From Candidatus Eiseniibacteriota bacterium (GTDB lineage: Bacteria > Eisenbacteria > RBG-16-71-46): a stretch of 64,000 bases of DNA. The position numbers were made by a program. This document shows positions 36,001-57,000 of this stretch, one piece after another; position 1 is the first letter of the stretch, and every line of letters begins with the position of its first letter. The DNA is taken from the NCBI GenBank assembly GCA_041483195.1, contig JBGPFC010000002.1, positions 64,001 to 128,000 of the forward strand, given 5' to 3'.

Positions 36001-39000
36001 CAGCGGGTGCCGGCGGATACCGAGGTGGTGCGCGTTCCGGGCGGGAGCGCGCTCGCGGCGTGGTTGCGCTGGACGCGCGCCCGCCCCGGCCGCCGCTCGA
36101 GCGGGACGTTCGCGGGACTGCGCCGAATGAGCGACTGGTGGCTCCTGCCCGATTCGTACTCGGGATGGGCGAAGCGCGCGCGCGGGGTCTCGCTGTCGCG
36201 CGTGCGAAAGGGCGGCTTCGACGCCGTGTTCTCGAGCTCTCCGCCCGACAGCGTGCACCTCGCCGGGCTCGAGCTGAAGCGGCGCACCCGTCTGCCGTGG
36301 GTGGCCGACTTCCGCGATCCATGGATCGGGCTCTATTTCCGCGATCCCCCCACCCGGTGGCATCGCGCCCGGCAGCAGTCGCTCGAGCGCGCTGTGCTCG
36401 CATCGGCGGACGTGACGGTGACGGCGTCGCGCACGCACGCCGCATGGCTCGAAGCGCGCCCCGGCGCGCGGCCCGCGCGCGTCGTCCACATCGCGAACGG
36501 CTTCGAACCCGACGCGGCCGTGGCTCCCGCCGCGCCGGCACCCGATGCGGCGACCGCGGGAGAGCGGGCGTTCGACCCGGACCACTTCACGCTGGCCTTC
36601 ACCGGGACGCTCTCCCAGATGCCGGACGCCGAGGTGTTCTTCGAGGCGCTGCACGAGCTGTTCGCGCGCAGGCCCGAGGCGCGCCGGCGCCTGCGGATGC
36701 GCATCGCGGGGCCGTATGATTCCGGCTACGAGGATCGCTCGATCGCGCTCGGGCTCAAGGGCATCGTCGAATTTCTGGGTCCGCTGCCGCACGCCGCGAC
36801 GCGCACGCTGCAGCGCGCGGCCGACGTGCTGCTGATGTGGAAGCCACGCGGCACTCCGACCATGGTTCCGGGCAAGCTCTACGAGTACGCGGACAGCGGC
36901 CGTCCGATGCTGGCGCTGCTGCCCGAAGACGACGAGGCGGCCGAGCTGGTGTCGCGCGCGGGCGGCGAGCGCGTGGCCCCGGGAGATCGCGCGGCGCTCG
37001 CCGCGAGCGTCGAGCGGCGCTATCTCGCGTGGAAGGAAGCCGGACGATCGAGGAGCGCGCGCCCCGCGTGGCTCGACGATCACACGCGCGCGCGCCTCGC
37101 CGGGCAGCTCGCCTCGGTGCTCGATTCGCTCGCGGGATCCGCGCGATGATCCTCTCGCTGAACGGTCCCGTCACGCGCGTCGAGCGCGTCGGGCTGGTCG
37201 CCGCGCTCGCGCTCGCCACCGCGCTCATGTGGCCGCTCCGGCACTACCTGACCGACGACACCTACATCCACCAGCAGTACGCGCGCCACCTCGCGAACGG
37301 GCAGGGGCTGGTCTTCAACGTCGGCGAGCGCGTGTACGGCTGCACCAGCCCGCTCTGGGTCGCGCTGATCGCGGACGGAATGGCGCTGGGCATCGACGGG
37401 CTGCGGGTCGCTCGCACGCTCGGGTTCCTGGCGACACTCGCATCGATCGCACTCTTCTTCCAGCTGATGCGACGCACGCTCCGCACGCCGGAGCTGCGCG
37501 CGCTCGCCACGCTCGCGTGGGCGGGGCACGCATGGATGCTGCGCTGGTCGCTCTCTGGCATGGAGACCCCGCTCGCGGTGGCGCTCGTGCTCGCGGGATT
37601 CGTCGCGTTCACCGAAGGCCTGCAGTGGGGCTCCCGTCCGGTTCGAACCGCCGCCCTCTGGTCGCTCGCCGCCCTCACGCGCCCGGAGGCCGTCTTCCTG
37701 CTCGGGCTGTGGACGGTGTTCCTGATCGTGGACACCGACAGTCGCGCCGGCCTGCGCCGCCTCGTCTTCGGTCTCGTCCCGCCGCTCCTGATCTACGGAG
37801 GATGGCTGGCCTTCTCGCGCCTCTACTTCGGGACGTTCTGGCCCAACACGCTCGAAGCCAAGGCCGCGGGTTCGGAGGGGCTCGCCTTCCAGCTCGACAA
37901 CCTGTGGCGTCAGGTCAAGATCGTCGGCGCGACCGACGGCGTGAAGGCGGCGGTGCTGATCGCGGCGCTGGTGTTCGGCGCCCGCCGGATGTGGCCGCGC
38001 CACACCACGGCGCAGCGCATGGTGCCATGGGTCTGGCTGGTCGGAGTCCCGGCGCTGTACGTGGCGCGGGGCGTGCCGGTGCTCTCGCGATACCTGTTGC
38101 CGCTGCTGCCGGTGATGGGATGGCTGGCGTGGCGCGCCGCCGAGGTCTGGTGGGTGGGAGAGGACCCATCACCGGCGCAGCGCCGGCGCGCCGTCGTGCT
38201 GGGCGTCGCGCTCGCGGCGCTCACGCTGTTCCAGAATCTGACCGTCTATCGCATGCAGGTGCTCCCGCACGTCGAGTCGTTCAGTGAGGGATTCCGCGGA
38301 TCGCTCGTGCGGTGGGGGCGCTGGTTCGGCGATCACGCGCCGCCCGGAGCGGTCATCGCGACGCCCGACATCGGCGCGATCGGATATTTCAGCAGGCATC
38401 GCGTCGTCGACCTCGCGGGCCTCGTGACGCCGCAGATGGTACCGCTGCTCAGGCAGCAGCCCGCCGAGGACGTGGTGCGCGAGCTGCGGTTCGAATCGTT
38501 CGCGCGTCCCGGTTTTCTCGTCGACCGCGCTCCGGTCGCGAACGATCTGATCGCGCGCAGCAGCTTCGCGGCGTGCCTGACGCCGCTCGGTCACGCGTCG
38601 GTTCCGAATCTCGGGATCGCGCGCCCCGGCGAGGCCGTTTACACGTTCTACCGCGTCGACTGGGCGGTCTTCGACACGCTCCGCGCGCGACGCTGAGCCG
38701 GCGGCGCGCGCCCGGTTCGCGCCAACGCGAACGCAGGGCATTCGAGCCCTCCTCGAGGAGCGCGCGACCCCGGATCCGGCGCTGCACGCGCGTGCACTTC
38801 CGCCGGCCGCGAAATATTCCAAATCACCTGACGATTCCTTTTGACAGCCGCGCATCTTCGCTCGTATCGTGCGGCACGCGGTGGGGAGTTGTGGGGATTC
38901 GTGGCGGTTGGTGGCAACCAATGGGAATGCGAGAAGCGCGTCCGATGGCGTTCTACGGGACCGAAACCTACGCGATCGATCACAAGGGCCGCATCAGCGT

Positions 39001-54000: not shown

Positions 54001-57000
54001 CGCGATCTCGGGGTCGTGCTGCTCGACCTCGGCGGCGGCACCACCGATGTCGCGGTGTTCTTCGAGGGCTCGATCCGCCACACCGCGATCGTCCCGTTCG
54101 GCGGCGCGAACGTGACGAACGACATCGCGATCGGATTGCGCACCCCGATCGACAAGGCGGAACAGATCAAGATCCAGCACGGCTGCGCGCTCGCGGCGCT
54201 GGTGCCGGCCGACCAGACCATCACGGTGTCGGGCGTGGGGGGCCGGGCCGACCGCGAGATCTCGCGCCACGTGCTGGCCTCGATGATCGAGCCGCGCATG
54301 GAGGAGATCTTCGCCCTCGCGAACAAGGAGGTGAAGAAGAACCACTTCGCCGAGCTGCTGGGCGGGGGGGTGGTGCTGACCGGCGGGACCTCCCTGATGC
54401 CCGGGGTGGTCGAGCTCGCCGAACAGGTGTTCGAGATGCCGGTGCGGCTGGGCGTTCCGCAGGGGCTGGGCGGGCTCTCGGCCAACGTCGCCGATCCACG
54501 CTTCGCCACCGGCGTGGGGCTGGTGCTTCACGCCGCGATGGGAGAGGGAGCCGAGACCGCAGGCCGCGAACGCCGCGGTCACGGAGAGAGAGCCCGCGGG
54601 TTCGACCTGCGACGCTGGTTCACCGATTTGTTCTGATCCATCACCGCCTCATACCCGGCGGATCTCGCGCGCGTACGGATCGTCCGTCCGCGCCGCCGGC
54701 GGGGAAGGCACAGGGAGCCGTGCCATGTTCGAGCTGGAGATCGAGAACACCAACACCGCGAAGCTGAAGGTCATCGGGTGCGGCGGCGCGGGCGGAAACG
54801 CGGTCAATCGCATGATCGGCGCCGGCCTGCGCGGCGTGGAGTTCATCGTCGCGAACACCGACGTGCAGGCCCTCAATCAGTCGCTCGCCCCGCACCGGAT
54901 TCAAATTGGAATGAGCGCGACCCGCGGGCTGGGCTCGGGAGGCGATCCCACGCAGGGCCGGGCCGCGGCCGAGGAGGACACCCAGTCCATCTCCGACGCG
55001 CTCAACGACAGCGACATGGTGTTCATCACCGCCGGCATGGGTGGCGGCACCGGCACCGGGGCGGCGCCGGTCGTCGCGCGCCTCGCGAAGCAGACCGGCG
55101 CGCTGACGGTCGCGGTCGTGACCAAGCCGTTCCAGTTCGAGGGTCGGCGGCGCATGCGGCAGGCCGACGAAGGCCTCGCCGAGCTGCGTGCCGAGGTCGA
55201 CACGCTGATCGTGATTCCCAACGAGCGGCTGCTCTCCGTCGTCGACAAGGGCACGTCGCTGTCGGACGCGTTCAGCGTGTGCGACGAGGTGCTGCTCAAG
55301 GCGACCAAGGGGATCTCGGATCTCGTCACCGTCCCGGGGATCGTCAACCTCGACTTCGCGGACGTGAAGGCGGTGATGTCGAATCGCGGGAACGCGCTGA
55401 TGGGCACCGGCCGCGCCTCGGGTTCGAACCGCGCGACGGAGGCCGCGCAGGCCGCCGTGTCGAGCCCGTTGCTCGAAGACGTCTCGATCGCGGGAGCGGA
55501 AGGCGTGCTCGTCAACATCACCGGGGGTCGCGATCTCACGCTGCACGAGGTCAACGAGGCCGCCGGCGTCGTGGTGGGCGCGGCGGGCGAGGATGCGAAC
55601 GTGATCTTCGGAGCGGTGATCGATCCCAACATGGACGGCGAGATCATGATCACGGTGGTCGCCACCGGATTCGGTCACGTCGAGCCGCGGCTGCGCCTGA
55701 TCGACAAGGCGCGAGCGGCCGCCGATGGCGAGGAGGACGGTGAGCTGAAACACCCGCAGCCCTGGAAGCGGGGCGATGACACCCGCGCCTCGCGCTGGAG
55801 CCGCTCCGGGACGCGCGGCGAATCCCTCGAGGTCCCGACGTTCCTGCGGCGGCAGATGGACTGACACGCCGGACCGTCACCATCTGAGCGCGACCGCCCG
55901 CGGGGCTCGATGGCCGCGGGCCAGCGGCCCGCGCCAAAACAGGAGTGTGCTCTGACGATCTTCTCGACACTGTTGCGCTGGGGTCACAATCGGCACTACA
56001 GCCGCGGCATGGTGCACTTCAACCGCGGAGAATACGATCGAGCCGCCGAGTCGTTCGAGCGTGCGCTGGCCGAGGTGCGGGAGCCGTCCGATCCGGACTA
56101 CAGCCTCGCTCGATGCTATGCCGCCGAGGCGCGCTCGCAGCTCGGGCTCGCGTTCTTTCACGCCGGGCAGTACTCCAGCGCGGAGCGGGAGTTCACGCGC
56201 GCCCTCGAGGAGAACCCCTCGTTTCCCGATTTGCGCTACCTGCGGGCGCGGATCTACGAGCGCTCGGGGCGCACGCAGGAGGCGGTCGCGGAGCTGACGC
56301 TCGCGCTGGGGGACCAGCCGAACTACGTCGACGCGCACCTGCTGCTGGCGCACTGCCACAGCCAGCTCGGCGATCCAGCCCGGTCCGCCGCCTCGCTGCA
56401 GCGCGCGCTCGAGCTGGGTTACATCCTGCCGGCGGGCATGGAGTCATCGCGGGCCGCCGAATGGAATACCGCGGAATGGGCCGACGTGATTTCCGACGCG
56501 CGCCCGGCCGGGCCCGCCACGGGCTCACAGGATCGCGCCCTCGAGCGCTACCACGAGGGCGACCTGGCCGGCGCCATCGAGGACCTGCGACGGGCGGTCG
56601 CCGAGCAACCCGCGTGGGCCGACCGCCGCTGCCGGCTCGGGGGTCTGTTGCTCGAGGCGGGACGCCTGGACGACGCTCTGCTCGAGCTGGAACAGGCCCT
56701 GCGGATCAACCCGCGCTACCTGGAGGCACGCATGCTCGCAGCCCGCGCCCACCTCGAGCGCGGGGAGGCGGGCGCAGCGGTGGCCGGGCTCGAAGTGGCG
56801 ATCGCGAGCTTCCCCGACTATCCCGATCTCCACTTCTGGCTCGGGCTCGCGCGGTTTCGAGCGGGCGATCTGGCTCGCGCGGCGGAGACCCTCGAGCGCG
56901 CGGTCGAGCTCAATCGCCAGTTCGGGCGCGCCCAGCGCCTGCTCGCGCTCGTCTATCACGCGCTCGGGCGGCGCGAGGACGCGCTGCGGGCGCTGCGCCG

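Follow-up and report, generated by a model that had tools for sequence, protein, structure and literature searches.

In two Eisenbacteria families, the head of the dcw cell-division operon carries a palindrome, TGCAC-N4-GTGCA, which is very probably the LexA-bound operator of this lineage, the mraZ copy included. In all 86 mraZ loci with a promoter match, this box lay outside the promoter, 21-96 bp 5' of the consensus -35 and beyond two A/T tracts. A LexA site 5' of mraZ is as such already a published precedent, given in the available part of Cornish et al. 2014 (PMC3998124); the novel element is the geometry of the box, upstream of the division promoter. The earlier note on this DNA missed that the mraZ box lies so far 5' of the promoter, a position from which SOS derepression of the ordinary kind does not follow.

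The window analysed was a stretch of 64,000 nucleotides from one genome (G000). The site TGCACGCGCGTGCA at 38783-38796 was a perfect, strand-neutral palindrome (predicted LexA operator TGCAC-GCGC-GTGCA, 21.7 bits), 162 bp 5' of the mraZ start, in agreement with the distance of about 160 bp claimed before. It ended 44 bp 5' of the mraZ -35 hexamer. The promoter was a sigma-70-type TTGACA-18-TATCGT on the + strand (38841..38870; consensus match, 1 found vs 0.0 in shuffles). A distal, apparently UP-element-like A/T tract lay about 26 bp 5' of the -35 (38812..38818, +). Four GTGG repeats at 10-bp spacing (38881..38915, +), of the kind in the MraZ literature, mark a predicted MraZ autorepression site. 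The genes that followed on the + strand were mraZ (38945..39397; PF02381, TIGR00242 above cut-off), a STAS-domain gene (39397..39843; PF13466/PF01740), rsmH (mraW; 39827..40756; PF01795), a probable ftsL assigned by gene order only, with no Pfam match (40753..41190), ftsI, murE, murF, mraY, murD, ftsW, murG and murC (41315..52563; Pfam, with individual Mur ligases assigned by order and motif), and ftsQ, ftsA and ftsZ (52560..55864; Pfam). Apart from the gene at the ftsL position, Pfam thus confirmed the mraZ-to-ftsZ operon. A co-directional membrane-protein gene without a Pfam match lay 5' of the box (37146..38696, +).

G000 contained seven perfect TGCAC-N4-GTGCA sites against 2.8 expected. 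The same half-site pair occurred 13 times at spacer 3 and 14 times at spacer 9, so the site count alone is unremarkable. Location was distinctive: with the gene calls made in this analysis, 7/7 sites at spacer 4 were intergenic, as the earlier note had stated, vs 3/60 at the other spacers from 0 to 12. The neighbours listed previously were recovered in part. Both Y-family polymerase cassettes, the radical SAM gene and the second DnaE downstream on contig C25 were found again, but only six sites had been named; the seventh, also strand-neutral and the second perfect LexA-type box of the window (2181..2194), lay 6 bp 5' of tRNA-Lys(TTT) (2201-2276). The claim that the box occurs twice before lexA did not hold, as the second palindrome (C45:7163) was made up of the right half-site and the -10 hexamer. 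It scored 9.0 bits vs 21.7-25.0 for the six other G000 sites, and a second palindrome of this type was perfect in only 1/31 lexA loci.

The LexA protein of G000 matched TIGR00498 (172 bits) and the Pfam LexA DNA-binding and S24 domains; no Fibrobacter protein was among the 120 matches listed. The Ala-Gly cleavage site and Ser/Lys dyad motifs were present in 28/28 aligned LexA proteins of families 1 and 2. The box occupied the -35/-10 spacer of lexA in 31/31 loci, and translesion polymerase cassettes carried it too. For recA, whose membership had been doubted on an 8/10 match, boxes were found in 17/18 loci of family 1, each within the -35/-10 spacer, which places recA in the regulon, and in 4/6 loci of family 2 and 1/3 of family 3. 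Among metagenome matches to TTGAC-N4-box-NTA, 60/80 preceded lexA and none preceded mraZ. Five genomes without a lexA match (G038, G055, G096, G084 and G007) retained boxes at polymerase or radical-SAM genes; these absences look like assembly gaps, so they provide no test of LexA loss.

Comparison across the phylum paired the LexA helix STNG(V/I)RY with the TGCNC-N4-GTGCA box, STNGV(C/Q)Y with TGAAC-N4-GTT(C/T)A (3/4) and S(P/V)ATV with CGAAC-N4-GTTCG (5/5); a box was looked for with STRA/STKG-type helices across the phylum, and none was found. Nine LexA positions separated box-carrying from box-less families, a pattern confounded with ancestry. The lineage's boxes included TGCCC and TGCTC half-site variants, which indicates tolerance at position 4. 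The LexA box of Fibrobacter succinogenes, reportedly described by Mazon et al. in 2004 as TGCNC-N4-GTGCA, is the same palindrome with the same tolerance, a likeness of the box alone and in another phylum. To our knowledge, the Fibrobacter box has no link with mraZ.

A box was present 5' of mraZ in 95/98 genomes of the order that have mraZ, and 90 of these boxes were perfect. Family 1 had a perfect box at 84/85 mraZ loci, the remaining locus being cut by the contig start with 13/14 bases present. The 10 loci of family 2 comprised six perfect, three one-mismatch and one two-mismatch site. Family 3 showed no box in 3/3 genomes, although mraZ lay within the dcw cluster. The site had been described as kept across the order on the strength of 26/26 loci; it extends more widely than that in two families and fails in the third. 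No perfect box occurred at 79 mraZ loci elsewhere in the phylum, and among 41 relatives with the same lexA box, none had a perfect mraZ copy and three had one with a single mismatch. One-mismatch sites in family 11 (G145, G146) adjoined a divergent gene. When GTDB was scanned for the complete mraZ architecture with a strict pattern built from these same loci, 54 loci were returned, 47 at mraZ and seven unrelated; of the 47, 29 were titled Eisenbacteria, 16 had no name and two had other names.

The promoter geometry at mraZ differed from that at lexA. Equivalent putative promoters were matched in 86 mraZ loci, by consensus only. A -10 followed the box in 31/31 lexA loci vs only 5/86 mraZ loci. 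The gap from box to -35 was 31-51 bp in 78/86 loci, 21 bp in one and 62-96 bp in seven, reaching 96 bp in one genus, and the distance from A/T tract to -35 was 26.1 ± 2.2 bp in the 53 family-1 loci having a tract. At none of the 86 loci did the box cover the -35/-10 or the start site, as a classical SOS operator does; lying 5' of both the -35 and the A/T tracts, it has the position of a class I activator site. The possibility of a further promoter, sense or antisense, concealed around the mraZ box was examined and rejected.

We tentatively propose, at not quite even chances and from sequence, that intact LexA supports dcw transcription and that its cleavage lowers it, pausing division without SulA. 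At SOS genes, LexA between -35 and -10 would block RNA polymerase. At mraZ, where the promoter is intact and LexA would bind 5' of both it and the A/T tracts, the effect would most likely be positive, either via polymerase or by offsetting MraZ autorepression. DNA damage would then lead to RecA-driven LexA cleavage and switch on repair and translesion genes, transcription of mraZ-ftsL-ftsI through ftsZ would drop, and the drop may pause division without a SulA-type inhibitor. The stronger version is more doubtful: an inverted SOS checkpoint, in which LexA would directly activate the whole mraZ-to-ftsZ operon, cleavage would switch repair on while shutting division off, without a dedicated inhibitor protein, and the arrangement would have been fixed in two families since their common ancestor. 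A Pfam search for SulA found none in 5/5 genomes, and a regulon scan of G000 gave no small membrane-protein candidate. The SulA result is still compatible with an unrelated inhibitor, and the LexA-box cassettes encode two uncharacterised 84-aa DUF6504 proteins.

Several observations count against activation. The mraZ promoter comes close to consensus and is not weaker than its counterparts in relatives that lack the box (-35 matches 5.22 vs 5.14; -10 matches 3.74 vs 3.77), so it does not look activator-dependent. Gaps peaked at 32-33, 36-37 and 42-44 bp, those of 36-38 bp being out of helical phase, and phasing was not significant over 32 genus medians (Rayleigh p = 0.19; p = 0.008 with 51 non-independent values). 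The gaps of up to 96 bp and the definition of promoters by consensus match alone add to this.

It is possible, though rather unlikely, that LexA instead represses mraZ at a distance, by blocking alpha-subunit upstream contacts or by looping with a MraZ oligomer. In that case the operon would be induced by damage, and the outcome would be either a MraZ pulse that shuts the operon down or a surplus of division proteins for recovery. At its other sites in these genomes LexA acts as a repressor, the mraZ promoter is strong, the variable, unphased spacing fits a flexible loop, and excess MraZ causes filamentation according to the available text of bioRxiv 2022.02.09.479790. However, a gap of at least 31 bp in 85/86 loci keeps the box 5' of the distal A/T tract, although overlap would be the simple means of repression, and induction would raise the entire operon through ftsZ together.

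The evidence for LexA as the protein at the mraZ site is comparative. A purine and a pyrimidine at spacer positions 1 and 4 were found in 83/86 mraZ, 30/31 lexA and 15/15 other SOS sites (background about 0.33), and flanking C and G were common to mraZ and SOS sites. With a matrix whose training set was limited to SOS-promoter sites, scores at mraZ resembled those of that set (median 22.4 vs 23.1 bits). Occupation by a different transcription factor that shares the palindrome, or by MraZ itself, would suit the atypical position, the more symmetric spacer and flanks (spacer 1/4 complementary in 48/86 vs 4/31) and the lack of an mraZ copy in most relatives sharing the lexA box. It is nevertheless improbable: the 10 core positions and the 4 secondary ones all agree with lexA sites, and perfect boxes with an RNNY spacer are scarce, at 0-8 per genome and mostly 3-5. 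MraZ in particular is unlikely as the binder because its own GTGG repeats form a separate block 3' of the -10; it reads GTG(T/G) direct repeats, which the palindrome lacks and which are found at 38881-38915 instead.

We give equally little credence to LexA as a roadblock or insulator that would keep transcription of the upstream operon from reading through. The same co-directional gene preceded the box in 76/77 family-1 loci, its stop as near as 0-8 bp in some, and G000 gave no terminator-like site. Yet the distance of the box follows the mraZ promoter and not the upstream stop (0-337 bp away in family 1), and the box persists where the upstream gene differs or is divergent, as in G005. An RNA hairpin or terminator is very improbable: 71/86 mraZ sites fold as a hairpin and T-rich stretches follow, but compensatory changes are lacking, four family-2 variants break pairing and remain LexA-like, and only 5/86 have a T-run next to the stem, the tract being anchored to the -35.

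The proposal that LexA supports dcw transcription has partial parallels, cited here from the available parts of the papers. In gut Firmicutes, a LexA operator likewise lies 5' of mraZ, at -125 from the start codon, and EMSA showed binding of B. subtilis LexA to it; those sites are scattered metagenomic matches to a GAAC-N4-GTTC box, with promoter geometry and direction of control not given in that part (PMC3998124). The Eisenbacteria site differs in its box, is near-fixed in two families and lies 5' of the -35. In M. tuberculosis, LexA activates the division gene whiB2, which falls upon damage in a RecA-dependent manner, similar to the activation proposed for dcw; there the target is one regulator and not the dcw operon, and Rv2719c, a distinct inhibitor, is induced as well (Smollett et al. 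2012, PMC3381160). Repression of the B. subtilis mra operon arrests division via FtsL (bioRxiv 2022.02.09.479790). SulA, YneA, SidA and SosA, which under LexA control link DNA damage to an arrest of division (PMC9578287), are induced inhibitor proteins, whereas the control proposed here would act on division-gene transcription. MraZ autorepresses dcw via GTGG boxes (bioRxiv 2022.02.09.479790, PMC12957436), and G000 likewise has four such boxes downstream of the -10; the proposed LexA input would be a second, upstream one on top of this autorepression.

These results define a LexA motif and core regulon for an uncultured phylum, and the mraZ sites of Firmicutes are worth re-examining for the same geometry. 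In many lineages no SOS division inhibitor has been recognised, and a predicted LexA operator at the dcw head in 95/98 genomes, in a non-repressor position, is a concrete candidate for an alternative checkpoint.

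In the genome under study (G000, 70% GC), seven perfect TGCAC-N4-GTGCA sites were found, two of them in the window (starting at 2181 and 38783). By our own gene calls all seven were intergenic, as the earlier note had stated, compared with 3/60 at the other spacers from 0 to 12. They comprised two overlapping palindromes upstream of lexA, one before each of two cassettes of an 84-aa protein and a Y-family polymerase, one upstream of a radical-SAM gene (the cassette and radical-SAM sites also as previously described), and one each upstream of mraZ (38783-38796) and tRNA-Lys(TTT) (2181-2194). 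Scored with a matrix whose training set was limited to SOS-promoter sites, six of the seven reached 21.7-25.0 bits, and the next genomic match 14.9. The second lexA palindrome was rejected as a separate box: it scored 9.0 bits and is made up of a half-site plus the -10 hexamer, so the earlier count of two boxes before lexA was reduced to one. Both polymerase cassettes start with an 84-aa DUF6504-like protein (L348:3374-3625 and L349:6881-7132, locus sequences of G000), in the position usually occupied by imuA. For tRNA-Lys(TTT), 6/29 loci having upstream DNA (L318-L347) carried a LexA-type box. The box was perfect in G000, G040 and G047 and a TGCCC variant in G084 and G086, in all five 18-22 bp upstream of the tRNA gene; in G037 it was at -74. 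In G000 it lies downstream of the apparent promoter.

We found mraZ in 98/102 genomes of the order and read all 98 upstream regions. A perfect box preceded mraZ in 84/85 family-1 loci, the remaining one being truncated at the edge of its contig. In family 2 there were 6 perfect, 3 one-mismatch and 1 two-mismatch boxes; the unpublished genome G010 supplies one of the one-mismatch sites (gap to the -35, 62 bp), as well as one lexA, one recA and one tRNA locus. Conservation across the order, as earlier claimed, thus held for families 1 and 2 (90 perfect sites) but not for family 3 (0/3 loci). Elsewhere in the phylum, another 101 genomes have mraZ; the 79 loci read from these gave 0 perfect and 5 one-mismatch boxes, and in families whose lexA has the same box, 0 perfect and 3 one-mismatch of 41 loci. 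In the RecA tree, families 1 and 2 grouped together (moderate support, 89/82) with family 3 outside, which fits a single gain of the box before mraZ.

The binder of the box is very probably LexA, because the box occupies the lexA and recA promoter spacers, follows the recognition helix and shares secondary preferences at mraZ. G000 has one intact lexA. The box filled the -35/-10 spacer in all 31 lexA loci examined, from 94 order genomes having lexA, and in an unselected metagenome scan 60/80 loci with TTGAC-N4-box-NTA preceded lexA. The regulon membership of recA had been doubted; it is supported by a variant ending in GTGTA, which fills the promoter spacer in 17/18 family-1 loci (one further locus, too short, stands outside the 18). 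Variant recA sites were also upstream in 4/6 family-2 and 1/3 family-3 loci. Among 30 lexA loci from other families, the box co-varied with the LexA recognition helix wherever a box was found. At mraZ, the spacer began with a purine and ended with a pyrimidine (RNNY) in 83/86 sites (30/32 genera) versus about 0.33 expected, and the flanking C and G preferences were common to SOS-gene sites. Perfect RNNY sites numbered 0-8 per genome, mostly 3-5, with 0-2 in the reversed control. The Fibrobacter LexA box is the same palindrome.

Other features of these loci were recorded. LexA occurs in the phylum in several types, which differ in their boxes (TGCAC, TGAAC, CGAAC), and two lexA genes were present in several genomes (L234-L263). 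On G000 contig C45, an IS200-like TnpA gene with its own one-mismatch box directly follows lexA (L351:449-904); G034, G005, G003 and G013 have a similar gene after lexA. An in-frame, putatively intein-like insertion near codon 201 interrupts recA in 9/19 family-1 genomes, giving open frames of 580-844 aa (L356, L415-L422).

The geometry at mraZ was measured in 86 loci, 8 loci read later being left out. Downstream of the box lay a consensus promoter, TTGACA-17/18-TAnnnT, and beyond this the MraZ GTGG repeats. Between the box and the -35 were 31-51 bp in 78 loci, 21 bp in one and 62-96 bp in seven. This gap contained two A/T tracts; the distal one kept a constant distance of 26 ± 2 bp to the -35, with the box floating upstream of it. 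No second promoter was found around the mraZ box in either direction. Since its distance to the upstream stop codon varied (0-337 bp), it was kept where the upstream neighbour gene is different or divergent, and it lies upstream, the predicted operator is tied to the mraZ promoter yet kept out of it. In contrast, the box lies inside the promoter at lexA, recA and most polymerase cassettes of the same lineage; a -10 followed it at 11/15 SOS sites other than lexA. Family-2 loci with the 62-96 bp gap (L067, L068, L070 and L071, the last from G010) share a conserved element resembling GCGGCACAAC(C)AAGTA between the A-tracts, between box and -35, possibly the site of another factor.

Pfam confirmed mraZ as the head of the cell-division (dcw) cluster, as earlier proposed, in the order mraZ-STAS-rsmH-(ftsL)-ftsI-murE-murF-mraY-murD-ftsW-murG-murC-ftsQ-ftsA-ftsZ for all genes but ftsL. 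The STAS (anti-sigma-antagonist-like) gene (39397-39843) has a similar counterpart between mraZ and rsmH in G003 and in the two family-3 loci that were read, but not in family 11. The G000 cluster lacks murB and ddl, and murC runs directly into ftsQ (51166-53372).

A LexA site before mraZ is already known: in gut Firmicutes one was predicted 125 bp before the start codon and bound in EMSA (PMC3998124). We searched the literature outside subscription journals and bioRxiv supplements for LexA in connection with mraZ, dcw, Fibrobacter or Eisenbacteria; no paper turned up that deals with this lineage or describes a LexA site upstream of the promoter at dcw. What is new is therefore the lineage-wide fixation and the geometry.

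The analysis supports the identity and position of the mraZ site, and its regulatory effect is what we infer. Our leading, still tentative, reading is that LexA controls the dcw operon positively: loss of LexA would lower dcw transcription, and division would then pause. No SulA turned up in five genomes, and no small membrane protein in the G000 regulon scan. In published work, LexA activates whiB2 in M. tuberculosis (PMC3381160), repressing mra arrests division via FtsL in B. subtilis (bioRxiv 2022.02.09.479790), and mraZ RNA drops on ciprofloxacin in C. glutamicum, there with no stated connection to LexA. However, the mraZ promoter core was as strong as in box-less relatives, and helical phasing of the box was not significant per genus. 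Repression by LexA from a distance, or looping with MraZ, is a possible but less probable alternative. A LexA roadblock at the mraZ site is improbable, and so, to the same degree, is binding by another factor, given the preferences shared with SOS-gene sites. That the palindrome acts as an RNA hairpin is most improbable. The upstream geometry at mraZ may invert the usual SOS logic.
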